From: Deltaproteobacteria bacterium
Lineage (GTDB): Bacteria > Myxococcota_A > UBA9160 > SZUA-336
DNA length: 64,000 nt
NCBI GenBank assembly: GCA_029261925.1
Contig: JAJDAJ010000070.1
Span: 67,613 to 131,612 of the forward strand
Direction of reading: 5' to 3'
This document shows, piece after piece, positions 4,487 to 61,169 of the stretch; the stretch's first letter is position 1, and every line of letters starts with the position of its first letter. Under the pieces are notes generated by a model. The model saw only the letters and a program-made list of their open reading frames with translations, did not search any database and was not told the origin of the DNA. Both the position numbers and the translations under genes were made by a program.

Positions 4487-4598
4487 GGGCGCCGCCTCGC
4501 AAGCGTGATCGCTCTCACAGCGGCGCAGGCCCACGATCCGATCGAATAGGGGCCCGTTGCCCGGCGGCGACCGTCCGGTGCACGAGGCCGGAGGCCCG

Positions 4599-15053: not shown

Positions 15054-16077
15054 GACGGAAGTGGGGGCCGTAGTTGCGGACCGCGCAGTCGGGCCCCGGA
15101 TCCCCGTTCACGGGGTAGACCTGGATGATGCTGCAGTTCTCCTCCGGGAAGCCGCGGAAGACGAACGGCGCCGTGTTGCAGATCGTCGTGTTCGGGGATC
15201 CGTCCGCCAGCACGTCATTGGGCTGGAAGCGCCAGCCGCGCTCGCGCAGGTCGCAGCCCCCCAGTGCATCGCACTGGCTGCCGGTCGAGGTGCAGGGCAC
15301 GGTGCGGTCGTCCAGGCACACGCCGTGCAGCTGGCCCGGGACCTCGAAGTCCTCGTCCATGGCGAACGGGGTGCCCGGGCCGCCCTCGAAGATCCAGGGC
15401 GCCATGTTCGCCTGGTCGAAGGCGAGCGAGGGCGCGTCGGTGATCACCGGGTACTTGCTCAGGCTCCCGGCGGCGCAGAGGGCTCCGTCGATCAGATCGT
15501 TGCAGCAGATCAGGCTGCGGTTGGCGTCCCCGGTGCCGTTGTTGATCAGCGTCCAGCGGATCTCGGTGCTGCCGGGCGGGTCGCTGCGCGCGAAGCGAAG
15601 GCCCGTGCCCGCCAGGTCGCCGTTGACCGCGGCCGAGATCCAGATCGGCCCGGCCTGGGTCGGCGTCACCGACTGGAAGCCGTTGGCGTAGACGTGGTCG
15701 ATGCCCTGGGTGCCCACGTCCACCGCCATCTCGACCGGGCAGCCCTCCGTGAGCGTGGGCACGCAGTCGTCCTGCTCGCGGATGAAGAAGGCCCCGAAGA
15801 GCGGCGCGAAGGCGCGCTCGGAGCCGCAGTCGGGACCGCCGAGACCGGTGCTCCGGATGTACAGGTAGCTGCCATCGAAGTCCTCGTGATCCCAGGCGAA
15901 CGGGTCGGCGGGAGCCGGCTCGCGGCCATAGGAGTTCGGGGCGCTCAGCCCGTACTTCGTCACCGTGCAGCCGCCCGAGCAGTCGATGGCGATCTGTGCG
16001 TCGGCGCCCGGCGCGTACATCCACCCCGCGATGGCGAGCGCCCCGACGATGCTCCAGCTTCTTGCGTTCTGTCTCAT
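14698..16077 (-). CDS. Secreted Cys-rich protein with TSP3/dockerin-like C-terminal module
   Basis: ATG at 16075-16077 with GGAGGG upstream. Signal peptide MRQNARSWSIVGALAIAGWMYAPGADA. Many Cys in the N-terminal ~340 aa. C-terminal DLDCDGVADGVDLCP..DTNGNGRGNECECGDATRDGLVNIGDILLINSFVF...DANFDDVADILDLLAVNADIF (divergent copy). Confidence 0.8.
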   Translation of the reverse strand: MRQNARSWSIVGALAIAGWMYAPGADAQIAIDCSGGCTVTKYGLSAPNSYGREPAPADPFAWDHEDFDGSYLYIRSTGLGGPDCGSERAFAPLFGAFFIREQDDCVPTLTEGCPVEMAVDVGTQGIDHVYANGFQSVTPTQAGPIWISAAVNGDLAGTGLRFARSDPPGSTEIRWTLINNGTGDANRSLICCNDLIDGALCAAGSLSKYPVITDAPSLAFDQANMAPWIFEGGPGTPFAMDEDFEVPGQLHGVCLDDRTVPCTSTGSQCDALGGCDLRERGWRFQPNDVLADGSPNTTICNTAPFVFRGFPEENCSIIQVYPVNGDPGPDCAVRNYGPHFRPDLDCDGVADGVDLCPSYSEIDQLSDTNGNGRGNECECGDATRDGLVNIGDILLINSFVFVDPGAGTTAEGNIRLSAPLADANFDDVADILDLLAVNADIFSAGGLTTTCGRSPVAGQ

Positions 16078-16141
16078 CTTTCCCTCCTCGAGCAAGCCGT
16101 GGTCACGCGCTTGCGCTGTGATCGAATCGAATCGCGCGCGG

Positions 16142-33668: not shown

Positions 33669-33770
33669 CGCCGGCCGGCATCCGGCGGTCAGGCCCGGGC
33701 CACGCTGCACGTCGGCGCCGGCCTACAATGAGCCGGCGCCCGCCTCGTGGCGCCGGCCCCGGAGGACCCC

Positions 33771-38091: not shown

Positions 38092-39477
38092 GTGCGTCTA
38101 AGAAAACGCGATCTTCGCGTCCGGGTCAAGGGTTCCTGGCCGATCCGTTTCTCCAGGGAGCAGATTTCCGCCTACGGGGGCCTGGAGTTCTTCCGGCGCT
38201 TCCTGTTCGCCATCGACATGCCGCGGCGGCTGCGCGAAGCGCTCGCGCCCCACGGACTCGACGGCGACTACGGAGCGGCGCGGCTCGCTCTTGCGATCGT
38301 GGCGCTGATCGTGGTCGGGGGGCTGCGCATCAGCCACATTGCCTTCCTGGGCCAGGACCCGGTGGTGCTGCGATTCGTCGGGCTCAAGCGGCTGCCCAGT
38401 GATCGAACACTCGGCCGCTGGCTGGAGCGGTTTTCGAGTCCCGCGCTGCTTTCCCTGGAGATCTTGATCCGCGACCTGGTCTACGAGCAGGTCGAGCGCT
38501 CCAACCTGAACCGATTGACCCTCGATATCGATGGGACCGTCCTGCGCACGGGGGTACGGGTGGAGGGCACGGCGCGTGGCTACAACCCCCACCACCCCAA
38601 GGACAAGTCGTACTACCCCCTGACGGCCCACATCGCCGAGCTCGGCCAGATCCTGCGCGTGCGCAACCGACCCGGAAACGTCAACGACGCACATGGAGCT
38701 GTCGGCTTCCTCCGGGTCATCGTCGAGGAACTGCGCTCGCACTTCGGCGGCCGGATGCCCGTGCGGCTGCGCATGGATGGCGCCTTCTTCACGCCCCAGA
38801 TCCTGCAGTTTCTCGACGATCGAGACGATCTGGGCTGGGCGATGAAGGTGCCGCTGTGGCAGTGGCTGGGGATTCGAGAGGAGATCTCCCGGCGCCACAC
38901 CTGGGTACAGGTCGCACCGGGCATCGAGGGCTTCGTGACGGCCGTGATCTTCGATCGCCCTCGCTGGCCGCAAGCCGTGCCCATCGTGGTCTACCGCAAG
39001 CACGTCTCTCATCGGACTCGCAAGAACTTCCAGCTCGACCTGTTCACGCCCGATGACGGGCACTACGAGTACTCGGCCGTCGCGTCCAACCTCGGGCTCG
39101 GCATCCGGAACCTGTGGAAGTTCATGGCGGGACGAGGCGCCCATGAAAAGACCCTCGGCGATCTCAAGACGCACTTCGCGTTCGACGTGATCCCCAGCCA
39201 GGATCGCCACGCCAATCGCGCCTGGCAGATGCTCAGTGTGCTGACGTTGAACCTGGTGCGCAGCTTCCAGATCCAGCTCGGTGCACCCCGCCGCAAGCAC
39301 ACGGCCAAGTACACCTACCTCTACGAGTTCCAGAGCCTGCGCACGCTCGGCTTCGAGCTCATCCGACTGCCCGCACGGCTGGTCACACCCGCAGGACGTG
39401 CCCAGCTCCGATTTGCGATCCCACCGCCTGCCCGGCGGCGTGTCGAACGCGCCCTGCAACATCTCGAAGCTGCCTGA
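38092..39477 (+). CDS. IS1380-family DDE transposase
   Basis: 461-aa ORF (GTG 38092; TTG 38056 also possible). ISAYGGLEFF..., LTLDIDGTV, ARGYNPHHPKDKSYYPL, NRPGNVNDAHGAVGFL, VRLRMDGAFF and GAHEKTLGDLK fit the IS1380 (PF13701-type) pattern as I remember it. Confidence 0.85.
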   Translation: MRLRKRDLRVRVKGSWPIRFSREQISAYGGLEFFRRFLFAIDMPRRLREALAPHGLDGDYGAARLALAIVALIVVGGLRISHIAFLGQDPVVLRFVGLKRLPSDRTLGRWLERFSSPALLSLEILIRDLVYEQVERSNLNRLTLDIDGTVLRTGVRVEGTARGYNPHHPKDKSYYPLTAHIAELGQILRVRNRPGNVNDAHGAVGFLRVIVEELRSHFGGRMPVRLRMDGAFFTPQILQFLDDRDDLGWAMKVPLWQWLGIREEISRRHTWVQVAPGIEGFVTAVIFDRPRWPQAVPIVVYRKHVSHRTRKNFQLDLFTPDDGHYEYSAVASNLGLGIRNLWKFMAGRGAHEKTLGDLKTHFAFDVIPSQDRHANRAWQMLSVLTLNLVRSFQIQLGAPRRKHTAKYTYLYEFQSLRTLGFELIRLPARLVTPAGRAQLRFAIPPPARRRVERALQHLEAA

Positions 39478-39837: not shown

Positions 39838-41163
39838 ATGAACCTGACCCACCGCGATCTCCGCTACCTGACCGTTGCGACTCTCCTCAGCGCCGTGCTC
39901 CTGTGGCCGGCGGCAGGATCCGCACAGCAGAGCTTCACGCATCGCCTGACCTCGATCGTCTACGACTACGACAACAACGGCACGACCGACGCGACGACCC
40001 TGTTCGAGTACGACACCAGCGGGCGCGCCACCTCCACGAGCTACGCGTATGCGGGGGATGGCACGCCCGATCTGTTCGTCACCGAGGATGACGACGCCGC
40101 TTCCGAGGCGGGCGTCGTGGGCTACGATGCGGACGATCTATTGACCTCATTTGCCCTGGTTCGACAGCTGATGGGAGGGGGCACCGAGGAGTTCGATTCG
40201 ACGTTCACTTTCGTGAATGGCGCGCTCACCCGCGTGGACTCGGCGTTCATGCTGGGCGGAGTCCCGAACGCGGGCTTCACGACGGTGAGCTACCTGGACG
40301 GCAGGATCGACAGGATCGAGGACCGCATGACGTCGAACGGAGCGCTCGTATCCGAGCAGTTCTACGCCTACGGGCCGGACGATCTCCCGAACCTCGTGAC
40401 CTTCGAATCCTCGGGCATCGACGCCGTCACCACACTCGCGTTTCGAGGCGACGGCCAGCTCGATGATCTCTCGACAACCGTCACGTTCGGCGCGGCGCAG
40501 ATCGGGGCAGGCGGTGCCGATTACGCGTACGACGCCGACGGCGTCATCCAGAGCGAGGCGTGGGCGATGACGGGCACGGTCGGATCCCCCTTCGCAGAGT
40601 TCCAGGGCGTGAGCTACCGGAAGACCTACACCTACGACGCCGCCAACCTCAAGGCCCTCGAGCAGATCGACATCGGCGATGACGGAAGCGTCGAGGCAAC
40701 GCGAACGTTCGTCTGGCAGCCAGGAGCCTGTGTGCCAGCGTTCATCTTCGCGCAGAACGGGCGCCCGAACTTCGCACGCTTCGACGGCCTCTCCTACGTT
40801 CCGGGAACCGGAGCCACCTATCTCGAGAACTGCGGTCCCGTCGGCTGTAGCGACCCCTCCGATCTGGACTGCGATGGCATCGCGAACGTGCTGGACCTGT
40901 GCCCCTTCTTCAGCTCGCCGAACCAGACGGACTCCGACATGAACGGGATCGGCAATGTGTGCGAGTGCGGGGATCAGAACGGTGACGGATTCGTCAACGT
41001 GGCCGACATCCTGGACATCAACGCGGCAATCTTCGAGCTCCAGCCAGCGGGACCCCTGTGCGACACGAATGACGATGGTCTTTGCAACATTGCCGATGTC
41101 CTCGGGGTGAACGCCAGGATCTTCGGTACGCCGGCGCACTGCGCGAGGTACCCGGCGCCGTAG
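39838..41163 (+). CDS. Secreted YD-repeat-like protein with TSP3/dockerin-like C-terminal module
   Basis: 441 aa. Signal peptide LTVATLLSAVLLWPAAGSA. YD-type repeats (YDYDNNG, YAYAGDG, YAYDADG, YTYDAAN). C-terminal DLDCDGIANVLDLCP..DSDMNGIGNVCECGDQNGDGFVNVADILDINAAIF..LCDTNDDGLCNIADVLGVNARIFG..CARYPAP. Confidence 0.8.
   Translation: MNLTHRDLRYLTVATLLSAVLLWPAAGSAQQSFTHRLTSIVYDYDNNGTTDATTLFEYDTSGRATSTSYAYAGDGTPDLFVTEDDDAASEAGVVGYDADDLLTSFALVRQLMGGGTEEFDSTFTFVNGALTRVDSAFMLGGVPNAGFTTVSYLDGRIDRIEDRMTSNGALVSEQFYAYGPDDLPNLVTFESSGIDAVTTLAFRGDGQLDDLSTTVTFGAAQIGAGGADYAYDADGVIQSEAWAMTGTVGSPFAEFQGVSYRKTYTYDAANLKALEQIDIGDDGSVEATRTFVWQPGACVPAFIFAQNGRPNFARFDGLSYVPGTGATYLENCGPVGCSDPSDLDCDGIANVLDLCPFFSSPNQTDSDMNGIGNVCECGDQNGDGFVNVADILDINAAIFELQPAGPLCDTNDDGLCNIADVLGVNARIFGTPAHCARYPAP
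40846..41163 (+). other. TSP3 + dockerin-like Cys-containing C-terminal module (domain, copy 4)
   Basis: See CDS 39838..41163. Confidence 0.7.
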
Positions 41164-41359
41164 CAGTGCGGCGTGAAGCGCGAGCCCGCAGGGACTCGCA
41201 CTGGCCTGTTTCCCGGGACCTGGGGCACCTGCACAGGCGGTCGGGTAGCCATGTGGTGCCAGACCGATGACACGCTGTACCCGGACTACACTGATCCGTG
41301 AATACCCGCGCCTGGGCTGAGCCGCTCGGCTCTGCCAGGCGACTGCACTGGAGGATGGC

Positions 41360-49725: not shown

Positions 49726-49818
49726 ATGAATCTCGACGGGGCCAGGACCCTGATGACCGGCGCTTGCCCCGGCATCCGTGCAGCCCTCGCCGGATCCGGA
49801 CCCGTGCTGCCGCGATGA
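49726..49818 (+). other. 30-codon upstream ORF / SDR N-terminal remnant coupled to the amidohydrolase gene
   Basis: GGAGGAG lies 5 nt upstream of ATG 49726. MNLDGARTLMTGACPGIRAALAGSGPVLPR resembles a decayed SDR N-terminus (LxGKxxLVTGAxxGIG). The stop overlaps the ATG of the next gene (ATGA at 49815-49818). Confidence 0.3.
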
Positions 49819-51401
49819 GCTCCGCATCCACGAGCCAGATCGCATTCACCGGCGGCCGGATCCTCAGCATGGATCCGCGGTATCCCGACCCCGCGATCGC
49901 GATCGTCGAGGACGGTCGCGTCTCGGCCCTGGGTCCGCGCGACATGCTCGCCGCCTTCCCCGCGGCGCGGGTTCACGATCTGCGCGGGCGGACGCTGCTC
50001 CCCGGCTTCATCGACGCCCACAATCACCTCTGCATCGCGGCGCTCCACCCCGTCTGGGCGGACCTGTCACAGGTGAGCAGCGAGGAGGAGCTGCTCGGGG
50101 CGCTGGCCGAGCAGGCTGCGCGCGAGCCCGGGGCGCGCTGGGTCCGCGGGATCGGCTGGAACGAGACGACCACCGGACTGCAGCCCGACCGCGCCCTGCT
50201 CGACCGGCTCGGACTCGACCGTCCCGTGATCGTGGCGCACTACTCGCTGCACCAGTGCGTCGTGAGTTCGCTCGGTCTCGACGAGCTCGGGATCGGCAGG
50301 ACGGCGCCGGACCCGCCCGGCGGCGTCATCGACCGTGATGCCCGTGGGGCCCCCACGGGTCTCCTGATCGAGCGCGCCTGGAGCGAGGCGCACGCCCGTT
50401 CGCTGGCGGAGTACCACGACGGGGATCGATGGGCCGAGCTCGTGGCCCGGCGGGCACGCGTGCTGCTCGCCGATGGGATCACGTGCGTGCACGACGCCGC
50501 GTGCCCGCCCTCCGCCGAGGCGCTGTACTTCGGGATGGCGCGCGAGGGCACGCTGCCGATCTCCGTGCTCACGATGCCTCACCCGGAGGCCCTGCTGATG
50601 CCCCTGTCCGCGGCGCGTCTCGAGGGGCCCCTGACCGGAGAGGGGGACGAGCGGGTTCGCGTCGGCCCCATCAAGCTGTTCGCCGACGGCGGCGTGATGC
50701 CGGCGATCGATACCTCCGTCAACGGTCAGCGCTTTCAGAGCGGTGCGTGCTTCGCGGACCTCGAGGACGGCGTGCTCCTGGCCCATTCCCGGGGCTTCCG
50801 GGTCGCGGTGCACGCCATCGGCAACCGGGGACTCGCCGCCGCCCTCGACGCGTTCGCCCGTGCGGCCCGCACGCGCGCCAGCGTAGATCCGCGCTTCCGG
50901 GTCGAGCATGCCTCGCTCGCGTCGCAGGTGCAGATGCGCACCATGGCCGAGCTCGGCGTGGTCGGCGTCGTGCAGCCGGGCTTCCTGCACCACATGGGCC
51001 AGGCCATCGAGCAGGTCGCCTTCGACGGCGATCCGTGGATGCCCTTCGGCGACATGGCCCGCGCGGGCGTTCCGCTGGCCGCCTCGTCCGACGACCCGTG
51101 CACGTTCCACGAGCCGCTGCGCACGTCGGCGCACGGTGCAACGCGCATCACCGGATCCGGAGGGGTGCTCGATCCGGAGCAGTCGCTCGAGTACGTGGAC
51201 TGGCTGCGGGCCTACACCTCGGGCGCCGCCTGGGCCGGCGGGCAGGAGGACGAGCGTGGCTCCCTCTCCCCGGGCAAGCGGGCCGACCTGGTCGTGCTCG
51301 AGGGCGAGCTCGATCCCGCCCATCCCCCCGTCGTCGCCGAGACCTGGGTCGAGGGGGAGCAGGTCTTCGAGCGTCCGGTTCCGGGAAGCACCGGGGCCTG
51401 A
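49815..51401 (+). CDS. Amidohydrolase (Amidohydro_3 / YtcJ-like)
   Basis: ATG 49815. LLPGFIDAHNHL (HxH), VAVHAIGNRG, FRVEHAS, AASSDDP, ADLVVL. Confidence 0.85.
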   Translation: MSSASTSQIAFTGGRILSMDPRYPDPAIAIVEDGRVSALGPRDMLAAFPAARVHDLRGRTLLPGFIDAHNHLCIAALHPVWADLSQVSSEEELLGALAEQAAREPGARWVRGIGWNETTTGLQPDRALLDRLGLDRPVIVAHYSLHQCVVSSLGLDELGIGRTAPDPPGGVIDRDARGAPTGLLIERAWSEAHARSLAEYHDGDRWAELVARRARVLLADGITCVHDAACPPSAEALYFGMAREGTLPISVLTMPHPEALLMPLSAARLEGPLTGEGDERVRVGPIKLFADGGVMPAIDTSVNGQRFQSGACFADLEDGVLLAHSRGFRVAVHAIGNRGLAAALDAFARAARTRASVDPRFRVEHASLASQVQMRTMAELGVVGVVQPGFLHHMGQAIEQVAFDGDPWMPFGDMARAGVPLAASSDDPCTFHEPLRTSAHGATRITGSGGVLDPEQSLEYVDWLRAYTSGAAWAGGQEDERGSLSPGKRADLVVLEGELDPAHPPVVAETWVEGEQVFERPVPGSTGA

Positions 51402-51465
51402 ACGGCGCCGATGCGTGACGCGGCACGCGACACCAGAAGCGGGGCCCATGGCCCCGGGAGGCTGC

Positions 51466-53379
51466 ATGTCTGAACAGGTACCCCTGCATCCGCTCGAGCC
51501 GCTGCGCCCCGACGAGATCTCCCGCGCGTCGCGGATCCTCCGGGAGAGCGAGCGCATCGGCGACGGCGCCCGCTTCTGCTGGATGGCCCTGCACGAGCCG
51601 GAGAAGGAGGCGCTCGCCGCCTTCGAGAGCCGCGGCGCCGCGGTGGACCGGCAGGCACGGATCATGGTCTTCGACCGCGAGGGCGAGGGAAGCCTCGACG
51701 CGATCGTCTCGCTGTCCGGAGGGAAGGTGCTCTCCTGCACGCGCGCCCCGGACGGACACGTCGCGCTCTCCTTCGCCGACATGATCCGGGTGATCCAGCT
51801 CGTGAAGGCGGACCCCGCCTGGCAGGCCGCCATCCGCAGGCGCGGGATCGAGGACCTCGACAGCGTCCAGGTGGATCCATGGGTGACCGGCGGGTTCGAG
51901 CCGGAGGAGCGCCGGGGCGCCCGCATGATGCGGGCGCTCTCGTATCGCCGCGACTTCGCAGCGGACAACGGGTACGCGCACCCGATCGAGGGGGTCGTGG
52001 CCCTGGTAGATCTCAGCGCCGACGAGGTGGTCGAGGTCCTGGATCACGGCGTCACGCCGTTCCCCCCGGGGCACGGGAACTACGCTGCCGAGGATGTCGA
52101 CGGCTTCCGGAAGGACCTCAGACCTCTCGAGATCACCCAGCCCGAGGGCCCGAGCTTCGATGTGCTGGGCAACGAGATCCGCTGGCAGAAGTGGCGCTTC
52201 CGGACCTCGCTGCATCCGGTGCACGGGCTGGTGCTGCACACCGTCAGCTATCGCGATGGCGACCGCGAGCGCAGGATCCTGCACCGTGCCGCGCTGGCCG
52301 AGATGGTCGTCCCCTACGGCGATCCCGGTCCCATGCACTACTGGAAGAGCGTCTTCGACGCGGGCGAGATGGGGATCGGACAGTTCACGAACTCCCTGGT
52401 CCTGGGCTGCGACTGTCTCGGGGAGATCCGGTACTTCGACGTGTCGCTCTGTGGCCCGCAGGGCGATCCCTTCACGATCTCGAAGGGCATCTGTCTCCAC
52501 GAGGAGGACTTCGGGATCCTCTGGAAGCACACGGATCTCGCATCCCGATCCACGCAGGTCCGCCGCTCCCGGCGTCTCGTGGTCAGCGCGATCCACACGG
52601 TGGGCAACTACGACTACGGCTTCTTCTGGTACTTCTACCAGGACGGCACGCTACAGATGGAGGTCAAGCTGACCGGCATCCTGCAGACCTCGGCGGTCGC
52701 GCCGGGCGAGCAGCCCCCCTGCGCTCCCCTGGTCGCGCCACAGCTCGCCGCGCCGGTCCACCAGCACCTGTTCAACGTGCGCCTCGACTTCGACCTGGAC
52801 GGCCGGAAGAACTCGGTCTACGAGGTCGATGCCGTGCGTCTGCCCGACCCGGAGAATCCCGCCGGCAATGCGTTCGCCGCGCGCGCCACGCTGCTGGGCC
52901 GGGAACGCGAGGCACGGCGCGACATCGATCCCTCGGCGAGCCGCTACTGGAAGATCGTCAATCCGGAGGTGAGCAACGCCACGGGCCAGCCCGTGGGCTA
53001 CAAGCTCGTTCCCGGGAACGCGCCGACGCTGCTGGCGCATCCCGACTCGAAGGTGGCCCGCCGGGCCGCGTTCGCCACGCACAACCTGTGGGTGACGGCG
53101 TACGATCCATCCCAGCTGTCCGCTGCCGGCGACTTCCCGAACCAGCACCCGGGCGGAGCGGGGCTCCCCGAATACTCTGCTGCGGACCGTCCCCTCGAGA
53201 ACACCGACGTGGTCGTCTGGTACAGCTTCGGCGTCACCCACATCCCGGTTCCCGAGCACTGGCCCGTGATGCCCGTCGAGTACGCCGGCTTCACGCTCCA
53301 TCCCGCGGGCTTCTTCGATCGAAACCCCGCCCTCGACGTCGCACCCAGCAGCGCGTGTCATTCGCCAGAGAGCGACTGA
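51466..53379 (+). CDS. Copper-containing primary amine oxidase (topaquinone enzyme)
   Basis: ATG 51466 with GGGAGG upstream, 637 aa. TPQ consensus TVGNYDYGFFWYF. Cu ligands VHQHLF and the C-terminal VTHIP region. No signal peptide. Confidence 0.9.
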   Translation: MSEQVPLHPLEPLRPDEISRASRILRESERIGDGARFCWMALHEPEKEALAAFESRGAAVDRQARIMVFDREGEGSLDAIVSLSGGKVLSCTRAPDGHVALSFADMIRVIQLVKADPAWQAAIRRRGIEDLDSVQVDPWVTGGFEPEERRGARMMRALSYRRDFAADNGYAHPIEGVVALVDLSADEVVEVLDHGVTPFPPGHGNYAAEDVDGFRKDLRPLEITQPEGPSFDVLGNEIRWQKWRFRTSLHPVHGLVLHTVSYRDGDRERRILHRAALAEMVVPYGDPGPMHYWKSVFDAGEMGIGQFTNSLVLGCDCLGEIRYFDVSLCGPQGDPFTISKGICLHEEDFGILWKHTDLASRSTQVRRSRRLVVSAIHTVGNYDYGFFWYFYQDGTLQMEVKLTGILQTSAVAPGEQPPCAPLVAPQLAAPVHQHLFNVRLDFDLDGRKNSVYEVDAVRLPDPENPAGNAFAARATLLGREREARRDIDPSASRYWKIVNPEVSNATGQPVGYKLVPGNAPTLLAHPDSKVARRAAFATHNLWVTAYDPSQLSAAGDFPNQHPGGAGLPEYSAADRPLENTDVVVWYSFGVTHIPVPEHWPVMPVEYAGFTLHPAGFFDRNPALDVAPSSACHSPESD

Positions 53380-53385
53380 CGGGGA

Positions 53386-53410
53386 CCGGAAGGAAACTGG
53401 CGCGCCCGCA
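53386..53410. repeat. Distal copy of 25-bp direct repeat (partial tRNA-Arg 3' end; att-like)
   Basis: CCGGAAGGAAACTGGCGCGCCCGCA is identical to 61081-61105. Confidence 0.75.
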
Positions 53411-53417
53411 ACGGAGC

Positions 53418-54296
53418 ATGAGCTCCAGCCTCGCATGGAGGAGGACAGTGCACCGGTCGCCCCAGTACACGGCCCACCGGGGCTCGGTCCGCCGCTATAT
53501 TCGCTCACGCGTGGTGGAACACCCCTTCTCAGACATTGACTCCCAGCCGGATCCGTCGGCCTGGCTGGAGTGCCTCGACACGACTCGCCAGGAGCCGTTC
53601 CACCAGCGCTACAAGCAGCTCTTGCTGGAGATGCTCCGGGTTCGTCCGGGCGGTCGCTACCTGGATGTCGGTTGCGGGACGGGCGACGACGCCCGGGCCC
53701 TGGGCGACAGGGGAGCATCCGCGGTAGGCATCGATCTCGCCCGCACGATGACGGCCGAGAGCCGGAGGCGGGGGCTCTCCATGGTGGTGCAGGGAGATGC
53801 CGCCGCTCTGCCCTTCGAGTCCTCCACCTTTGATGGCACGTGGGCCGATCAAACATTCCAGCATCTCGCGGATCCACACCTGGCCCTGACGGAGCTGATC
53901 CGCGTCGTACGGCCAGGCGCTCGGGTGGCCGTCGCAGATCCCGACTACAGCACGCAGTCCATGAACTTTCCTGACCGCGAGCTCGCACGCCAAGTGTTCC
54001 AGTTCCGGGCATTCCACGCGCTCCGAAACGGGACCCTCGCCCACACCATGGACGCCGAGTTCAGGAAGGCCGGTCTTGTGGATGTTGAATCTCGAAAGGA
54101 ACGACTGGACGTCCGCGATCCGAGAACCGTGGACCACGTGATGGGCTTGCGCTCCTGGGCCTCTGCTGCCGGCAAGCGCGGCCTGATGTCATCCGCCCAG
54201 GTGAAGCTATGGGAACAGCTCTACGACGAGATGGCGGCCTCCACAAGGTTTCGCTGGTCGGTCTCGTTCTATCTGACGGCGGGCTCGAAGCGCTAG
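53418..54296 (+). CDS. Class I SAM-dependent methyltransferase (Methyltransf_11-like)
   Basis: YLDVGCGTGDDARAL (motif I), FDGTWADQTFQHLADP, VRPGARVAVADPD. Start uncertain (ATG 53418 or GTG 53511). Confidence 0.75.
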   Translation: MSSSLAWRRTVHRSPQYTAHRGSVRRYIRSRVVEHPFSDIDSQPDPSAWLECLDTTRQEPFHQRYKQLLLEMLRVRPGGRYLDVGCGTGDDARALGDRGASAVGIDLARTMTAESRRRGLSMVVQGDAAALPFESSTFDGTWADQTFQHLADPHLALTELIRVVRPGARVAVADPDYSTQSMNFPDRELARQVFQFRAFHALRNGTLAHTMDAEFRKAGLVDVESRKERLDVRDPRTVDHVMGLRSWASAAGKRGLMSSAQVKLWEQLYDEMAASTRFRWSVSFYLTAGSKR

Positions 54297-54300
54297 AGGG

Positions 54301-54501
54301 CAGGCGGCGGGCGAGCACGGGGCGCGTGTTCTCGAAGGAGACGCGTACGGCGGGGGTCCGCGCCACGAGCCGGACGACCGCGAAGCCGCCTCCGCTGGGA
54401 ACCGGATCCGCCACGGTCCCGGGCCGCTGCAGCGCGAACGCCGTGCTCAGGATCTCGGCCGGCACCCCGGGGCTGTTGCGCTCGAGCCAGCCGCCGCCGG
54501 A
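54301..54501 (-). pseudogene. Remnant of a parvulin-type PPIase domain (C-terminal half only)
   Basis: The minus-strand translation SGGGWLERNSPGVPAEILSTAFALQRPGTVADPVPSGGGFAVVRLVARTPAVRVSFENTRPVLARRL parallels the pattern GGDLGWF.RG.MVPEFE.AAF.L..GE.S.PV.T.FGYHII...R....SFEEV. No N-terminal half and no plausible start. Confidence 0.4.
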
Positions 54502-54622
54502 GATCGGCTTTCCATCCCTGATGGGCCAGCGCGCGCCCCTTTCCCGGGTGCGATCAGCGGCGCGCGCTATATCTTGAGTCCGGCACCCGACACCGTTTCG
54601 CGTGCCACGAAGGGGGGGTGAG

Positions 54623-54970
54623 ATGGATTGGTACCTTGCCGCGCTGCGCAAGTACGCGGAGTTCAGCGGCCGGTCCCGGCGGACCGAGTATTGGATGTTC
54701 GTTCTCGTCTACGTGATCATTCTCGTGGTGCTCGCGCTGATCGAGGGCGCGCTGGGCATGCCCGGTGTCGTCTCCGGGCTTTTCCAGCTCGCGATGCTCG
54801 TCCCCGCCCTGGCGGTCGGCGCCCGGCGGCTCCATGACACGGGACGCAGCGGCTGGTGGCAGCTGATCAGCCTGATTCCGCTGATCGGCGCAGTCGTGCT
54901 CATCGTCTTCTTCGTGCAGGACAGCCAACCGGGCGACAACGGGTACGGGGCGAACCCGAAGGGCGGGTAG
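54623..54970 (+). CDS. DUF805 (YhaH/YhaI-like) inner-membrane protein
   Basis: ATG 54623. YAEFSGRSRRTEYWMFVL, ARRLHDTGRSGWWQLISLIPLIGAVVLIVFF, NGYGANP. Confidence 0.8.
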   Translation: MDWYLAALRKYAEFSGRSRRTEYWMFVLVYVIILVVLALIEGALGMPGVVSGLFQLAMLVPALAVGARRLHDTGRSGWWQLISLIPLIGAVVLIVFFVQDSQPGDNGYGANPKGG

Positions 54971-54974
54971 GCTC

Positions 54975-55200
54975 GGCAGTGAGTCGCGGGCGGTCCAACC
55001 AGGCGTTGGACCGGACCGGCAACAGCTCGGGGGTCCGGGGTCCCTGCGGGCGCGCCCCGTCCTCGGTGCGATACTGCACGACGAAGGTCTTGACGCCGGT
55101 CCGCTTGACGCGAACGCCGAAGCCACCCGAACAGACGAACACGTCACCGGTCGGGATTCGGCTTGGTGGCGTCGAGTCCGGCTCCCAGCGGATCGTCCGT
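54975..55200 (-). pseudogene. Frameshifted N-terminal remnant of a P4-type tyrosine integrase (arm-binding/DUF4102-like region)
   Basis: Minus strand. ...LDATKPNPDR-stop sits in one frame. GDVFVCSGGFGVRVKRTGVKTFVVQYRTEDGARP..PELLPV sits in the adjacent frame. This compares with the integrase pattern AKP..K.Y.L.DGGGL.LRV.PSGSK.W.FRYR..GK....LG.YPE.SL. The catalytic domain is absent; the DUF805 gene starts where it should continue. Confidence 0.5.
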
Positions 55201-55628
55201 TACCCGACCGGCCTCTAGCCACGCGCCGACCTCGAGCAGGCGCCCGGATCGGCACGCCCGTACGACGTCCGCGAGCTCATCCTCACTGTCGGCGAGGCGA
55301 CGCTCGGGCCCCGATAGGGCAGCGCGCACGATGCCTCGATCGATGCCCAGCTTGTCACGGTTGCGCACCTCGCCTTGGCAGGCGTTGGCGGGCCTGGGGC
55401 GGAATCAGCCCATCGGGGAGACAAGGAAGCCCCGGCGACCCTCGGGTGACCCGGCGGCCCCCGGATCGGCTAGGGCCGCGACCCGTAGAACGATTGTGTT
55501 CGGAGCGCCCTGATCGGACCTCAGATGCCCCTGGAGAGCCCCTCGACGTGGGGTGCGTCGACGGCAGCTGATCCGTTGGCACCAGCTGGCGTGATATCGT
55601 GGGACGGGGGTCGTCGGAGGGAGATCCT

Positions 55629-58600
55629 GTGCGATCTTATGGGCTTGGCCTGGCTCTCTGGCTCTCTGGATTCTTGATCGCTCCTGCTGCGCTGGGACTG
55701 GAGCTCGTTGAGGAAGTCGCTCCGCCCGGGCAACCGGGATCGCCCGGTGCCGCAGGCGAGGACGGAACCGACGGAACCAACGGCGAGGACGCTGATCTCC
55801 AGACGACGGCGACCGGCCTGGATCCGGAAGTCTTTTTCCGCGTCATCGGGGGCGACGGTGGAGCGGGCGGTCAAGGCGGTAGCAGCCAGGGGCTAGGCGT
55901 CCGTGGTGGTGCCGGAGGCTCGGGCGGCGACGGGGGTGATGCCGCGGCCACTTGCCTTGCCACCGATGCGGACTTCGAAAGCGTTCGACTTCATGCGACC
56001 GGCGGGGACGGCGGCGCCGCAGGTTTCGGGGGTGGGACGTTCTCTGACCGCGGACCCCCGGGGAGTTCGGGTGATGGCGGCAGTGCCCAGGCCGATCTCG
56101 AAGTGAGCAGCACGTCGGCGGACCCGGTCGCCATCGAGGTATTCGCGATGGGCGGCCGCAGCTCTGGGAGCTCCACGCCCGCCAGCGGAGGGGATGGGCG
56201 AGCACATCTCGACGCCACGGCGGTCGGGACCGAGCTAGATGCCTGGGTCATCTCCACCGGAGGTGGAGGCTCCTCGGGGGCAACAGCGCCGGACGGCACG
56301 CGGGCAGATGGCGGCCCCGGGGGCTCTGCCGACGCGACAGCGACTCTCGCTGGCCTCGGAGACGCCCGGGTTGTTCTGATTCTGCAAAGCGAGGGAGGAC
56401 AGGGTAGCACCGCGGCGCGAGCGGGCGCCGCGGGAGCGGCATCCGCAAGCGTCGTTGGATCCTCCGAGGCCGGAGACATCGACCTCAGCTTGCGGGTTGA
56501 AGGTGGCGACGCAGCGGGGTCCCTCGACTCCCAGGACGATCCCGATGCGGGCGCAGCGACAGCTCATGTGGAAGCGGCTTCCTCTGAAGGGGGCGACGTG
56601 GACATCTACGTCGTGGCGGTCGGTGGGCGCGGCGGACGACTGACCGGCCCGACCGGCACTGCGGGAAGTGGTGGGGCGACCGAGGTGACCGCCACTGGCA
56701 GCTCGACGACCGGGGATGTCTCCGTGTACATCGAACAGCTCGGTGGCGCTGGCGCCGCAGGCGCTGGCGGAGCCACGGCCGGCTCCGGTGCGGACTCGGT
56801 GCTGGAGGACGCGGCCTCCGGATCCACGGCAGGCACGCTTTTCCTCGAGCAGAGGGCAGAGGGTGGCCGGGGAGGAGAATCGGACGATCAGGCTCGCTTC
56901 GGATCGGCCGGCTCCGGTATCAGTCGACTGCACACATCTAATGCCGGTGGCGGCGACATCGTGGCACGGGCCATCGCGACGGGCGGGGATGGTGCGCGCA
57001 AGGACCCCAATAGCTCGGCCCCGACGGGGGGCGCCGGAGGCGTTGCCGAGGCCGAGGTCGTCGCGAGCGGCAGCGGAGACGTCACGATACTTGCCTCAGC
57101 CCACGGCGGCCGAGGAGGGACCGGCGTGAACTCCCCGAATGAAGAGTGGGGAAGCGGTGGAGCTGCGCGTCTGGGTCGCGTCTACGGATCTTCAGACGGC
57201 GGCGGTGAGGTCTCCGTGGTCGGCGAGCTGGCGCACGGCGCGGGAGGAGGAGGTGGGCCTGATGCGATCCTCGTGAACGCTGTTGACGGCGACACGACTG
57301 GACGGCTGTCGCTTGAGCAGATTGCTCATGCTGGCCCCCAATTTGAACTCCGCACAGGTGGTGACCTTCAGGGAGACGCGGGGAACAGCACTAGCGCCCT
57401 CGACGTGAGCAAGAGCGTGGAGCACCTGATGGTGCGTACGGAGGCAATCGCCGGGGTGACGGGTAGCGGTGCACCAGGCGTCGCGGAATCCACTGCTCGT
57501 GCGTTCAATGACGCGGGAAGTGTGCAGGTTCTCGCCGAGGCGACGGGCGGGGAGCGCTTCGGGAGCGAAGGGACTGAGAGCGCGGGGGCAGCCTTCGTAG
57601 AATCGCACGCGCGAACCACGGGCGACGATCACACGATCTGGATCGGGGCGCCGCCCGATCAGGACCCCTCCTTGCATGGTGCGTTTGGCGGAGCCGCCAC
57701 GGGTGAGGCGGGAAGCGCGGGAGACGCCACGAGCTCGTCGCAGGGGATCGCTGAGGGAGACTCGGAGGTCGTTGTCTGGGACCTGGCCTTCGGTGGCAGG
57801 TTCAGGCGAGACGAGAGCTCCGGCGCCGAGCTCGTCACCGGCGGCGATGCATCGTCGACAGCCATCGGAATCAACGCGGGCTCCAGTCCGGTCAGCGTTC
57901 ACGCGGAGGCCACCGGAGGGGGCCACCCCAACCCTGGATTCCTCGTCAGCCCCGGGAGTGAGGGCGGAGCCCACGGCGGAAATGCGAGCGCCGTCGCACA
58001 CGGCGAGTCGTCCTCGGGAGCAGTCACGGTCGAGGCCGTTACCCGCGGCGGTAGCGGAGAACGCGGTGTGCCTGCGAACGGAGGAGGAGGCGACGGAGCG
58101 GACGTGGTCGCGATCGACTCGGTGTCGGGCCGCACGACCGGCTCGCTGACGCTCGTGCAGCGCGCGCAGGGAGGCGAAGGGGGCTGGGGGATTGCCCGGA
58201 CCCACCTGAGCGAGAGCGCCGACGGAGGAGACGGCGGAGCGGCTCGTTCGGAGCTCATCCCGGACAACGATCGGGGCGGAGCCCTCGTCGCGACCGTCGG
58301 GGCCGTGGGAGGCAACGGCGGCCGCGGGTTCGGGGAGGGTCGCGCGGGACGCGGCGGCGATGCGGCCGGCTCCGTGGTGATCCGGGATTCGCCCGCAAGT
58401 GCGATCGACCTGATCCTGGAGATTCGCGGAGGAGCGGGCGGCGAGGTCCGCGATGGACGGAGCGGAAGCGCGGGGGATGGCGGCATGGCCGCGGTGGGAG
58501 AGGTCTTCGCGTCTTCGGCGCTCGGCGCTCCCATCAGCATCGACCTGCTCGTGAGTCCCGGTCAAGGAGGAGACGCCACCGGCGATGCCCCAGCCGGCAG

Positions 58601-60920
58601 CGGCTGGGACGCCGTCCTGGACAACGCGATCGACGGGGAGACCACAGGATCGCTGAGCCTGCGGCAGGTCGCGCGGGCGAGTCGCAGTGGACTCGCCGAA
58701 GCGGGCGCCCGGGGTCGGGCAGGTCGAGCTTCGAGCCACCTCTCGAAGTCGGGGAGCTTCGACTCTCTCACCCTCGAGGCCATCGCGCAGGGCGGCTCGT
58801 TCGGAGGCCCCGGCAGCAGCGCCACGGCCGAGGCCGTCGTGGATGCGCTCAACGATGCCGGCGCCGTGGTGGCTGTGGGCGAAGCAACGGGAGGCGTGTT
58901 CGGAACTGCGAGCAGTGCCGTGACGGCTCGCTCGACGGCTCCAGGAGCGCCGGTCACGGCTACGGGTCGCGGGATCGGCGGCTCTTCGGGTGCTGGAGAC
59001 TCATCCCTGAGCCGTGGCATGGATGCGACGAGCGAGACCACGGCCATCTCGGAAGCCGGGGGTGACGTTACGGTCACCGATGTCGCCTACGCAGGTGGAG
59101 GGACCAGCGATGGCCGACCCGGGGGAAATGCATCTTCCCGGGCTCTCGGACAGACCACCGGCACCGGAACAGTCGAGGTGTCCGCAAGTGCCCGTGCCGG
59201 AAGCGGGCTATCGGGCGGATCGAGCGGCGCTACCGGTACCGTGTCCGTGGAGGCCCGGGGCGAGTCGGAACTCGGGGACGTGAGCGTCACGGCAGCGGCC
59301 GACTTCAATCGGCCGGGCTTCGGTGACTCGGGCCCCGGGCCGGCGCCGGTGGCGATCCTCGAGGATGTCGTCACCGGCCGCACAGGAGGGCATCTGACGC
59401 TGCGACAGATCGCCGACGCCTTCAGCGCGGCACCGCGCGACGGCTCGGATCGCGGCCGCGCCGAGTCGATCCTCCACGGCACCAATCCCGGCGGCGGAGC
59501 CATCACGGCCATCGCCGAGGTCAGGACCGCATCGAGAGAGGTCGATACGAGAGCGCTGGTGGAATCGTCCAGCTCCACGGCCGCCGCGACGGCCGTCGGG
59601 GTTGCCTGGGGCGGGCCCCTCGCCGAGGTGTTTGCGACGGCTCGGACCGTGGGAGACGATCACCCCGTAACCGTGGGTCTCGCCGAGGGCCCGGGAGAGC
59701 CCACTCCCGGCGCATGGCCGCGGGTCGGAGCATGGGGCGGGAGCTCGAACTTCGGTGAAGCCCCAGGTGACGCACGAAGCCGCTCCGAGGGCGTCGCCGG
59801 GGGTCACAGCGCCGTGTCCGTGTACGACTACGCCGTCGGCGGCAGCGGTCAACGGAACGATGGTGGCTCCGGCGAGTCCGTCGCGCTGGCCACGGGAAAC
59901 GGAGCCCCGGTGCTTGCCAGCGCCACCGCCGCGGGGGGCTGGGCCGGGAGCACCCTGTTCAGTCGCGAGTTCTCCTACGGCTTCAGTCGGCCCCCATTGG
60001 ACCCGGTTCCGCTCGGTGGAACCGCACGCGCGAGATCGGATGCCAGCGGGACCGGCCAGGTCGACGCGCGCGCGGTCGCGACCGGTGGAATCGGCAGCGA
60101 CAGGGACCCTCTGGTGTTCCCCGAGCTCGATGACACCCCGGCGGTCGTGGCCTTCGCGGTCGGCGAAGGCGGAGACGCGATCTCTTCCGCGACCGCGCAG
60201 GGTGCGACCGGGAGTGCCGTAGCGCGCAGCATCACACAAGGTGGCCAGGCCGGTTGGATCGAGGCCAGCGCGAGCGCCTGGTTCCACGATGGCGAAGCGA
60301 CGGGGGCGGCCGCGGTCGGCGTGGCTGGGGGGCCGCTTGCCGACTTGCCCGCTGGCGCCGCGGCGATCTCGGCAGCTCGCCTTCGTCCGGCGCCAAGTGA
60401 GCCTGGCGCTTCCACGCTGACGATCGCATCCGGGACCCTGGGCGCCGGCTTCGGCGGCGGGGGCAACGAAGGTGTCCAGAGGACCGAAGCTCGGGCCTCG
60501 GTAGAGTTCCACGCCGCCGTGACATCCGGGAGGTCGGATCTGTTGCTGGAGTTCAACGATCCGATCGTGGGCCCGGACGGATTCGACGAGCTGGTGATCC
60601 GCGTTCTCGATGACGTCGGGACCATCATGCAGATGCGTTTCGACGACGAGGAGCAGGCGAACCTGTTTCTTCGTGGGTCGACAATAGATGTAGGCAACGT
60701 CTTCCCACCGGAGCTCATGGAGACGCCACCGTTCGGATTCGAGCGCCTCGTGCCCGAGCTGTTCGCTCTGACCGTGATTGTGGAGGTGCTCGGGATCCAC
60801 AGCCAAGCAACGGGACTCACTACGGAGTTTCGCCTCATTCAGGCCGCCGCAGTACCAGAACCTCGCGCCTGGGCCCTGTTCGCGATCGCAATTGCGGTGC
60901 TCGTCCTTCGACCGAGGTGA
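55629..60920 (+). CDS. Giant glycine-rich repetitive surface protein with PEP-CTERM anchor
   Basis: GTG 55629 is preceded by GGAGGGAG (the ORF opens at 55599), ~1763 aa. Signal-like LGLALWLSGFLIAPAALG. Short collagen-like GXY run. Hundreds of GG-rich beta-helix-like segments. A recurring ...D.V.G.TTG.L.L.Q.A... motif occurs 5 times. C-terminal AAAVPEPRAWALFAIAIAVLVLRPR. Confidence 0.8.
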   Translation: MRSYGLGLALWLSGFLIAPAALGLELVEEVAPPGQPGSPGAAGEDGTDGTNGEDADLQTTATGLDPEVFFRVIGGDGGAGGQGGSSQGLGVRGGAGGSGGDGGDAAATCLATDADFESVRLHATGGDGGAAGFGGGTFSDRGPPGSSGDGGSAQADLEVSSTSADPVAIEVFAMGGRSSGSSTPASGGDGRAHLDATAVGTELDAWVISTGGGGSSGATAPDGTRADGGPGGSADATATLAGLGDARVVLILQSEGGQGSTAARAGAAGAASASVVGSSEAGDIDLSLRVEGGDAAGSLDSQDDPDAGAATAHVEAASSEGGDVDIYVVAVGGRGGRLTGPTGTAGSGGATEVTATGSSTTGDVSVYIEQLGGAGAAGAGGATAGSGADSVLEDAASGSTAGTLFLEQRAEGGRGGESDDQARFGSAGSGISRLHTSNAGGGDIVARAIATGGDGARKDPNSSAPTGGAGGVAEAEVVASGSGDVTILASAHGGRGGTGVNSPNEEWGSGGAARLGRVYGSSDGGGEVSVVGELAHGAGGGGGPDAILVNAVDGDTTGRLSLEQIAHAGPQFELRTGGDLQGDAGNSTSALDVSKSVEHLMVRTEAIAGVTGSGAPGVAESTARAFNDAGSVQVLAEATGGERFGSEGTESAGAAFVESHARTTGDDHTIWIGAPPDQDPSLHGAFGGAATGEAGSAGDATSSSQGIAEGDSEVVVWDLAFGGRFRRDESSGAELVTGGDASSTAIGINAGSSPVSVHAEATGGGHPNPGFLVSPGSEGGAHGGNASAVAHGESSSGAVTVEAVTRGGSGERGVPANGGGGDGADVVAIDSVSGRTTGSLTLVQRAQGGEGGWGIARTHLSESADGGDGGAARSELIPDNDRGGALVATVGAVGGNGGRGFGEGRAGRGGDAAGSVVIRDSPASAIDLILEIRGGAGGEVRDGRSGSAGDGGMAAVGEVFASSALGAPISIDLLVSPGQGGDATGDAPAGSGWDAVLDNAIDGETTGSLSLRQVARASRSGLAEAGARGRAGRASSHLSKSGSFDSLTLEAIAQGGSFGGPGSSATAEAVVDALNDAGAVVAVGEATGGVFGTASSAVTARSTAPGAPVTATGRGIGGSSGAGDSSLSRGMDATSETTAISEAGGDVTVTDVAYAGGGTSDGRPGGNASSRALGQTTGTGTVEVSASARAGSGLSGGSSGATGTVSVEARGESELGDVSVTAAADFNRPGFGDSGPGPAPVAILEDVVTGRTGGHLTLRQIADAFSAAPRDGSDRGRAESILHGTNPGGGAITAIAEVRTASREVDTRALVESSSSTAAATAVGVAWGGPLAEVFATARTVGDDHPVTVGLAEGPGEPTPGAWPRVGAWGGSSNFGEAPGDARSRSEGVAGGHSAVSVYDYAVGGSGQRNDGGSGESVALATGNGAPVLASATAAGGWAGSTLFSREFSYGFSRPPLDPVPLGGTARARSDASGTGQVDARAVATGGIGSDRDPLVFPELDDTPAVVAFAVGEGGDAISSATAQGATGSAVARSITQGGQAGWIEASASAWFHDGEATGAAAVGVAGGPLADLPAGAAAISAARLRPAPSEPGASTLTIASGTLGAGFGGGGNEGVQRTEARASVEFHAAVTSGRSDLLLEFNDPIVGPDGFDELVIRVLDDVGTIMQMRFDDEEQANLFLRGSTIDVGNVFPPELMETPPFGFERLVPELFALTVIVEVLGIHSQATGLTTEFRLIQAAAVPEPRAWALFAIAIAVLVLRPR

Positions 60921-61080: not shown

Positions 61081-61105
61081 CCGGAAGGAAACTGGCGCGC
61101 CCGCA
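61081..61105. repeat. Proximal copy of 25-bp direct repeat (last 13 nt of tRNA-Arg + 12 nt downstream)
   Basis: Identical to 53386-53410. Confidence 0.75.
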
Positions 61106-61169
61106 GGGACTCGAACCCCGAACCCCCTGATCCGAAGTCAGGTGCTCTATCCAATTGAGCTACGGGCGC
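61093..61169 (-). tRNA. tRNA-Arg (anticodon TCG), CCA encoded
   Basis: Reverse complement folded by hand: GCGCCCG TA GCTC AATTGGATA GAGC A CCTGA CTTCGGA TCAGG GGGTT CGGGG TTCGAGT CCCTG CGGGCGC G CCA. 77 nt, all four stems pair (one G-U), U33 present, anticodon TCG. Confidence 0.9.

Follow-up and report, generated by a model that had tools for sequence, protein, structure and literature searches.

Environmental and biofilm bacteria have PEP-CTERM proteins in great numbers, and to our knowledge almost none of these has a known structure or role. The scheme by which exosortases sort such proteins is established (Haft 2006, PMC1569441), and we draw on this PEP-CTERM/exosortase literature, including work on a floc protein (PMC9850573), for the delivery to the cell surface or matrix proposed below. 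Here we report on a 64,000-nucleotide stretch of contig JAJDAJ010000070.1 from a Deltaproteobacteria bacterium (GCA_029261925.1), the whole of which we call the window, and on one gene within it (55629..60920, + strand) that encodes a glycine-rich, repetitive protein of 1763 aa, referred to here as the giant protein. We consider it fairly probable that this secreted, acidic protein of ~164 kDa is an exosortase-sorted fibre of the cell surface or biofilm matrix, from an uncharacterised family found in several phyla. The giant protein represents, at full length, a repeat family that has not been described before and that falls within the known class of exosortase-sorted proteins.

The giant protein ends in ...AAAVPEPRAWALFAIAIAVLVLRPR*, which includes a PEP-CTERM-type tail (60846..60917, +) composed of VPEP, the hydrophobic segment RAWALFAIAIAVLVL and a final RPR; a six-frame scan identified it as the only PEP-CTERM-like tail in the window. 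When searched with hidden Markov models (HMMs), the isolated 36-aa tail scored 17.3 bits against TIGR02595 (cut-off 16) and aligned with the C-termini of 12 further PEP-CTERM-type family models, while in a 204-aa context its scores against TIGR02595 and PF07589 fell to 12.6 and 12.4. In relatives of the giant protein the tail is conserved in position, directly after the C-terminal domain: 83 of 102 long relatives carry a PEP-type tail, most of the others have variants of the VPVP or VPLP type, and two relatives, P0021 (17.0) and P0003 (16.6), pass TIGR02595 at full length. We accept the tail as a putative PEP-CTERM-type signal, borderline for that of the giant protein alone and near-universal in position among its relatives. 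An earlier reading of the same DNA, made from the letters without database searches (the sequence-only reading), had proposed the same signal.

That reading had also noted a signal-like N-terminus, and we agree. Judged by eye, aa 1-23 (MRSYGLGLALWLSGFLIAPAALG, 55629..55697, +) form a Sec-type signal peptide with a positive start and a hydrophobic core; the N-termini of homologues are equivalent in type, and AlphaFold2 (AF2) gave residues 1-22 a predicted local distance difference test score (pLDDT) below 50. Seven collagen-like Gly-X-Y triplets follow (aa 34-54, GQPGSPGAAGEDGTDGTNGED, 55728..55790, +), modelled at pLDDT 93-96 and conserved in the family: G34 and G52 are invariant, and G37 and G40 nearly invariant, in an alignment of 20 full-length sequences, and 65 of 102 long relatives have at least five GXY triplets near the N-terminus, in a run directly after the signal peptide. 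The next stretch (aa 55-379, 55791..56765, +) consists of Gly-rich rungs with GGxGGx runs and a 1.86-fold enrichment of glycine at lag 3; it matches the short module of the super-repeat described below only partly, HMM searches placing two partial short modules at aa 147-380.

Beyond this N-terminal region the protein is built from super-repeats of ~430 aa, seen as offsets of 433-441 aa when the protein was compared with itself by BLAST in 120-aa windows. Super-repeat 1 (aa 380-816, 56766..58076, +), delimited by HMM (408 bits), alignment and AF2, has 11 rungs and contains motif rungs 1 and 2. Super-repeat 2 (aa 820-1224, 58086..59300, +; HMM 245 bits) is 38% identical to it and contains motif rungs 3 and 4, and a partial super-repeat 3 (aa 1232-1491, 59322..60101, +; HMM positions 153-426, 100 bits) comprises the long module only, with motif rung 5. 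The five motif copies were found exactly at the starting positions given by the sequence-only reading, nt 56790, 57258, 58098, 58605 and 59346, all on the + strand: ADSVLEDAASGSTAGTLFLEQRA (56790..56858, AF2 strands 390-400 and 403-411), PDAILVNAVDGDTTGRLSLEQIA (57258..57326, with a strong coupling between G554 and L560), ADVVAIDSVSGRTTGSLTLVQRA (58098..58166), WDAVLDNAIDGETTGSLSLRQVA (58605..58673) and PVAILEDVVTGRTGGHLTLRQIA (59346..59414). Their spacing, which had been described as irregular, turned out to be regular, because one motif opens the short module and one opens the long module of each super-repeat; the intervals of 156, 280, 169 and 247 aa accordingly alternate, with two motifs per ~430 aa. 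Every module opens with this bulkier, highly conserved rung, D.V..DAV.G.T.G.L.L.Q.A, and the motif rungs follow the ordinary rung plan, their conserved residues (V, L, V, then L, L, Q) being bulkier. Before the tail lies the non-repetitive C-terminal domain that had been claimed at ~130 aa and that we delimit, by AF2 and a family HMM, as a conserved all-beta domain of ~150 aa with eight predicted strands (aa 1591-1744, 60399..60860, +), which from the modelled strands we read as a probable beta-sandwich.

AF2 was run on two overlapping halves of the giant protein with 20-sequence alignments, and both halves were modelled as all-beta with high confidence (aa 1-830, mean pLDDT 85.7 and predicted template modelling score (pTM) 0.84; aa 820-1763, mean pLDDT 84.7 and pTM 0.82). 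Values of pLDDT near 85 in both halves argue against a disordered low-complexity product, and the high pTM over more than 800 residues suggests that the body is one rigid unit. The strands are paired and 8-10 residues long each, and the AF2 secondary structure laid on the sequence divides the body into ~37 rungs with a mean period of 39 aa. Each rung begins with a 9-aa 'a' strand with small alternate residues (A.A.A.G.S), continues through an arc of 3-5 aa into an 8-9-aa 'b' strand (V.V.A.A), and closes with a Gly-rich arc of 3-31 aa (GG.GG....G.GGDA) that starts with GG and ends with G.GG(D)A.

Covariation within the family agrees with this model. Mean-field direct coupling analysis (DCA) of 188 near-complete super-repeat copies from 161 family proteins produced couplings of up to z = 30, and 83 of the 90 strongest (92%) fall within a rung or between adjacent rungs, against a random expectation of ~22%; their registers match the AF2 strands (e.g., 747-757, 749-755 and 706-716). 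We then sorted the top 500 couplings by strand and face, with 'inward' denoting the phase of lower entropy. Inward-inward pairs number 52 between a(n) and b(n), where a single coupling is outward-outward (1 of 59), and 33 between b(n) and a(n+1), again with one outward-outward (1 of 34). Between successive strands of the same kind, the counts are 18 inward-inward and 8 outward-outward for a(n)-a(n+1), and 20 and 2 for b(n)-b(n+1). This pattern of faces indicates that strands a and b touch only via their small inward residues and that successive a strands are lateral neighbours, which favours two parallel sheets lying face to face and does not fit a single-sheet hairpin meander.

Together, the ~37 AF2 rungs, the in-register DCA couplings and the inward-only a-b pattern place the body in the beta-solenoid class, in line with the beta-helix or beta-solenoid suggested earlier, and they favour a flattened two-sheet solenoid with one parallel sheet made of a strands and another made of b strands, around a thin core of Ala, Ser, Gly and Val. 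Strong size-compensating Gly-Val and Gly-Leu pairs (747-757, 706-716, 792-801 and 554-560) are in keeping with a very thin core, and couplings between loops 31-45 residues apart indicate in-register stacking of the Gly-rich arcs as well. With 4.8 Å per rung, the length of the rod would come to ~18 nm. The arcs may be irregular or may resemble polyproline II (PPII); the lag-3 enrichment of glycine, the high pLDDT of segments to which DSSP assigns no structure and the antifreeze proteins among the structural matches speak for the latter.

These structural matches are all weak. Foldseek found no PDB structure at E ≤ 1e-3 for either AF2 half, and a search of BFVD returned nothing meaningful. The best, non-significant PDB hits of the N-terminal half are PPII-bundle antifreeze proteins (7jjv, 3bog and 2pne; E 0.011-0.06, 21-31% identity), and the match to ordinary beta-helices (EtpA, Hbp, Ag43 and tailspikes) reached a probability of at most 0.04. 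The C-terminal half gave weak matches over ~130-240 aligned columns to jelly-rolls of carbohydrate-binding modules (CBMs), MAM domains and lectins; the aligned query residues were not reported, and we assign these matches to the C-terminal domain from the length of the alignments.

The antifreeze hits raise an alternative fold, in which the body would be a single antiparallel hairpin meander with its small-residue face covered by polyglycine II (PGII) or PPII helices that the Gly-rich segments would form, a hybrid related to springtail antifreeze bundles or to the PGII sandwiches predicted for Gly-rich PE_PGRS proteins (PMC9436101). In favour of such a hybrid, the Gly-rich segments have pLDDT ~90 with neither strand nor helix in DSSP, glycine shows a 1.86-fold lag-3 periodicity in the N-terminal region, and a-b turns are as short as 1-3 residues, but a single-sheet meander predicts the opposite of the observed couplings, in which outward-outward contacts are nearly absent between a and b strands and yet number eight between successive a strands. 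Arcs that vary from 3 to 31 residues are also hard to square with a fixed set of PGII helices per rung, and the Foldseek probabilities of the antifreeze hits lie below 0.5. We therefore regard the hybrid as unlikely, and keep the two-sheet solenoid as the working model of the body.

The sequence-only reading had compared the five motifs with the core of PATR repeats, and the corresponding alternative, an autotransporter or two-partner-secretion (TPS) adhesin with a right-handed beta-helix, has in its favour a superficial likeness of G.T.G.L.L to that core and the presence of EtpA, Hbp and Ag43 in the Foldseek list. The resemblance did not hold up: neither PF12951 nor TIGR02601 matched the whole protein at E ≤ 1 or the five 65-aa motif segments at E ≤ 5, models of the autotransporter barrel, of TPS domains and of haemagglutinins were likewise without a match (E ≤ 1-5), and the Foldseek hits have probabilities of 0.00-0.04 and template modelling (TM) scores of at most 0.18. 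Right-handed beta-helices typically have a coil shorter than the ~39-aa rung seen here. Furthermore, in place of a barrel translocator or TPS domain, the C-terminus has a ~150-aa all-beta domain, a beta-sandwich rather than a beta-barrel in our reading, followed by the PEP-CTERM tail with its one membrane helix. This alternative is highly improbable and effectively refuted.

A calcium-dependent beta-roll of the RTX type, whose G.GGDA elements would bind Ca2+ so that the protein folds only outside the cell, also deserves consideration. The two parallel sheets, in which short strands follow Gly-rich turns, do resemble a beta-roll, the Asp of GGDA is conserved before many a strands in the alignment consensus, and the protein is very acidic (pI 4.3, with 210 D+E against 91 K+R). 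Its period is, however, ~39 aa and not 9 or 18, no HemolysinCabind or RTX model matched in Pfam or NCBIfam, there is no RTX structure among the Foldseek results, and we read its secretion signals as a Sec signal peptide plus a PEP-CTERM tail, and not as a type I signal at the C-terminus. An RTX-like roll is thus quite unlikely, somewhat more so than the PGII hybrid, and the solenoid with exosortase-dependent sorting remains our preferred reading.

Searching 5.8 billion proteins recovered 43 homologues (1055-2507 aa, 30-39% identity) that share the layout of the giant protein. None has a Pfam domain over its repeat body and most have no Pfam domain at all; four carry other domains (PEP-CTERM, dockerin, ASH and Ig-like), and several are named merely 'PEP-CTERM sorting domain-containing protein' or 'hypothetical'. 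Their sources include metagenome-assembled genomes (MAGs) of Myxococcota, 'Deltaproteobacteria', Gammaproteobacteria and Pirellulales. By iterative HMM search, the ~430-aa super-repeat occurs 2-4 times in tandem in most homologues, with single copies scoring up to 366 bits, and seven copies from three proteins are 38-43% identical with 39 invariant columns. Of 1.84 billion representatives of 50%-identity clusters, 686 matched the super-repeat profile at E ≤ 1e-3, and 203 of these did so at E ≤ 1e-30. The C-terminal domain belongs to the same architecture: its HMM matched 135 of 161 relatives, ending a median of 26 aa before the C-terminus. A homologue search with this domain alone recovered only one fragment (52% identity); the family HMM finds the domain family-wide. 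One homologue, P0019 (GCA_041389465.1, L022 8001-14644), is followed by an overlapping 990-aa open reading frame (ORF) on the same strand without a Pfam match, and may have been split by a frameshift or an assembly error.

We also searched GTDB species representatives with the motif DAVDG.T.G.L.L.Q written as a degenerate DNA pattern, which matched 18 loci, 16 of them true family members by HMM. By record title, these loci come from Myxococcota (six), Deltaproteobacteria (one), a Pseudomonadota MAG, an uncultured Gammaproteobacteria bacterium, Halioglobus japonicus, Chromatiaceae, Burkholderiaceae, Gemmatimonadales and Spirochaetaceae/Spirochaetales; a query with the giant protein alone found no close relative in GTDB genomes. 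The family is thus spread patchily over at least four phyla, which suggests horizontal spread of the family in general. Known families offered no counterpart. Neither the whole giant protein (Pfam, NCBIfam, PDB sequences), nor the super-repeat consensus (NCBIfam), nor the repeat body of the window (Pfam, PDB sequences), nor the consensus of the C-terminal domain (Pfam, NCBIfam, PDB sequences) had a match, and we found no description of the super-repeat family in the literature searched.

The gene itself is well supported. The + strand frame is open from 55599 to 60920, and a GTG start at 55629, preceded by a Shine-Dalgarno-like GGAGGGAG (55614..55621, +; read directly from the sequence) that ends 7 nt before it, gives a complete ORF of 1763 aa plus stop, with a predicted mature protein of ~164 kDa and a composition of 20.1% G, 15.9% A, 10.2% S and a single Cys. 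The sequence-only reading had predicted a single, uninterrupted Gly-rich repetitive ORF of ~1760 aa, and this was borne out. At the window's GC content of ~70%, a stop is expected about every 50 codons by our arithmetic from base composition; the length of the ORF is far above chance, and none of its alternative frames has coding-like GC content at third codon positions (GC3). The public gene call P0001 (1440 aa) begins at an internal codon (MDIYVVAVGG...) and loses the first 323 residues (window 55629-56597), and with them the signal peptide, the Gly-X-Y triplets and rungs one to eight; the caller was probably misled by the untypical codon usage of the ORF. These residues align with the N-termini of relatives and are modelled by AF2 with high confidence, so we take them to be real.

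A low-complexity artefact, whether an ORF open by chance or a collapsed assembly of GC-rich DNA, could be suspected from a GC3 of 0.74 that is untypical of the genome and from the shortened public call. Set against this are 1763 open codons, hundreds of homologues, strong covariation and confident structure models, as well as the assembly evidence. Contigs from Logan for four runs of one biofilm-metagenome study match the ORF with 0 substitutions and 0 indels, no DNA-level tandem repeat within it exceeds 29 nt, and the protein-level repeats are only ~38-40% identical to one another, which together make a collapse unlikely. Read depth over the ORF reached only ~8x in the best run, probably the source sample itself. 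A joint from 57847 to 58346 in the comparison of read contigs came from a 22-nt match in an unrelated contig and was disregarded. The artefact explanation is already refuted, and we give it practically no weight.

From this architecture and the exosortase literature, a route to the cell exterior can be proposed. Sec would export the giant protein, its C-terminal helix would retain it in the inner membrane, and an exosortase encoded elsewhere in the genome would cleave at or near the PEP motif, releasing or transferring the protein to the cell exterior or the exopolysaccharide (EPS) matrix. The rod may then act as a structural or adhesive element, and the jelly-roll-like C-terminal domain beside the anchor may bind polysaccharide.

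Several points weigh against this reading, and they concern its function, its sorting signal and its fold. We infer the fibre or adhesin function purely from architecture, and a search for RNA runs returned none. The isolated tail scores 17.3 against PF07589, for which the cut-off is 20.7, and the full-length giant protein reaches the threshold of no PEP-CTERM model. Neither the 64-kb window nor the 8-10 kb around five homologues contained an exosortase or EPS gene. AF2 favours solenoids for repetitive sequences, which is why we used covariation as an independent check, and we derive the sheet topology, handedness and rod length from DSSP strings and from a DCA whose effective number of sequences is ~187.

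A bolder proposal, which we put forward only tentatively, is that the ~430-aa super-repeat represents a kind of beta-solenoid not described before. It would make up the shaft of exosortase-dependent surface fibres that form a new class, one passed on horizontally among Myxococcota, Gammaproteobacteria, Burkholderiaceae, Gemmatimonadales and Spirochaetales. The undescribed solenoid would be distinguished, in an equally tentative description, by two-strand rungs of ~39 residues around an Ala/Gly/Ser/Val core, an ordered and possibly PPII-like Gly-rich arc, conserved 'fat' rungs and a short collagen-like cap. If confirmed, it would extend the known beta-solenoids by a new type and give exosortases a defined class of cargo, and the locus in the window offers one clean, complete member of a conserved family that numbers several hundred clusters at 50% identity. 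Halioglobus has cultured members, and with a relative present in an assembly labelled Halioglobus japonicus, genetics and surface proteomics could come within reach if a cultured strain carries the gene.

The sequence-only reading had presented the giant gene as the main cargo of a mobile element, and we considered whether it belongs to a horizontally acquired island at a tRNA gene, extending from ~38 or 41 kb to 61.1 kb and conferring a mobile accessory trait. A tRNA-Arg gene (TCG; 61093..61169, -; ARAGORN) lies directly downstream, its 3' end facing the stop of the giant ORF 172 nt away. A direct copy of this 3' end (20 of 22 nt; 41180..41201, +), 20 kb upstream of the tRNA, is a possible distal att-like boundary, and the window has just three occurrences of the 12-nt core. 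At the left edge of a region of lower GC (0.655-0.69 over 38-48 kb, against 0.70-0.74 elsewhere) lies a DDE transposase that looks intact (DDE_Tnp_1_4, 461 aa; 38092..39477, +). The genes of 38-55 kb have a GC3 of 0.83-0.91 and the giant ORF one of 0.74, compared with 0.90-0.96 in both flanks, codon choice differs as well (GAA 28% against 6%, GGA+GGT 42% against 21%), and the patchy distribution of the family points the same way.

However, no integrase, excisionase, conjugation or phage gene was found in 38-61 kb, and the ORFs of 36-64 kb include no integrase and one DDE transposase only. The other genes of 38-61 kb are ordinary (epimerases, ABM and SnoaL proteins, a P450, a methyltransferase-TPR protein, an amidohydrolase, a copper amine oxidase and a DUF805 protein), of kinds also seen beside homologues elsewhere. 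The low GC3 is partly a family trait, since the homologue P0003 has 0.84 against 0.92-0.98 in its neighbours, and the tRNA repeat is only suggestive, because we estimate that a 14-mer match to the tRNA is expected ~0.6 times by chance. When we asked whether homologues are also island-borne, five neighbourhoods showed ordinary genes with no mobile gene or tRNA, and a tRNA was found in 0 of 18 related loci scanned. What stands of the earlier claim is the tRNA-Arg flank, the 20/22 repeat, the lower GC3 and the single transposase; the integrase and transfer genes of a mobile element were not found, and the intervening genes are unremarkable. The region of 38-61 kb may well be an old horizontally acquired segment, but the evidence for carriage of the giant gene by a mobile element is weak, and we find an island at the tRNA possible though rather doubtful. 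With its relatives sitting among ordinary chromosomal genes, the giant gene is less remarkable as island cargo.

Some further features of the neighbourhood are recorded here. An unexpected 17-nt exact inverted copy of the tRNA-Arg 3' end (55040..55056, -) lies 570 nt upstream of the giant ORF. The DDE transposase is the only mobile-element gene in the window and sits where GC drops from ~0.74 to 0.66. Beside the direct repeat, the ORF 39838-41163 was considered as an integrase and rejected, being a secreted protein and not a recombinase. It is one of three secreted-looking paralogues (3170-4486, 4557-5993 and 39838-41163, all +), with a weaker fourth at 14698-16257 (-), that share a conserved ~40-aa Cys-containing C-terminal motif, ...PLCD(T/A)NDDG(L/V)C.(I/V).D(I/V)LG.NA(K/R)IFG..A.C.R.P.., which resembles one loop of the dockerin/EF-hand type carrying three Cys. 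A DUF4215 repeat is present in one paralogue as well, and the copy at 39838-41163 adjoins the transposase at the lower-GC edge. At 33747-35936 (+), a 729-aa protein with two tandem acyl-CoA dehydrogenase domain sets is a fused double acyl-CoA dehydrogenase. Closer to the giant gene, the longest ORF of the copper amine oxidase (50908-53379, +) overlaps the preceding amidohydrolase gene (49764-51401) by ~490 nt; its true start is probably downstream, near 51.4 kb, since its Pfam domains begin at residue 194. The ~2.2 kb between the amine oxidase and the giant ORF (53380-55600) hold only the DUF805 gene (54602-54970) and doubtful low-GC3 ORFs, one of them, on the - strand, with a weak Rotamase_2 match, and may be degraded sequence.

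Several described systems can be set beside the giant protein. Its C-terminal domain is the probable source of the weak Foldseek matches to CBM11, CBM27, MAM, the BC2L-C N-terminal domain and the carbohydrate-binding domain of BcsB, with E-values of 0.005-0.2 and target-normalised TM scores of 0.2-0.36, but matches no sequence model. With the RTX beta-roll (GGxGxDxUx nonapeptide repeats) the giant protein shares two parallel sheets, Gly-rich turns with a conserved Asp and an acidic, secreted character, and it differs in period, in motif, in the lack of an HMM match and in its secretion signals (Sec and PEP-CTERM against type I). Like the PPII and PGII bundles (the snow-flea and Granisotoma antifreeze proteins 2pne, 3bog and 7jjv; the predicted PGII sandwich of PE_PGRS, PMC9436101), it has runs of GGx triplets and confidently modelled Gly-rich segments without regular DSSP structure; unlike them, about half of each of its rungs is canonical beta-strand, covariation backs the stacking of sheets, and the E-values of 0.01-0.06 that link it to them are non-significant.

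A long, rigid, in-register rod and a probable surface location are common to the giant protein and to beta-solenoid adhesins such as PATR passengers, EtpA and tailspikes, whereas the giant protein matches no sequence model, has a ~39-aa rung of two strands and a ~20-aa Gly-rich arc around an Ala/Ser/Gly/Val core, and uses a different signal for secretion and anchoring. The PEP-CTERM substrates (TIGR02595 and PF07589; e.g., the floc protein PepA, NF033554) differ from it in other respects: the giant protein is far larger than is typical (the matched named family models have ~165-307 positions), has a conserved multi-module architecture common to hundreds of proteins, does not lie beside an exosortase or EPS locus, and has a borderline tail score. 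What it shares with these substrates is the signal peptide, the C-terminal arrangement of VPEP, membrane helix and basic end, a source in an environmental biofilm, and the absence of any other annotated domain.

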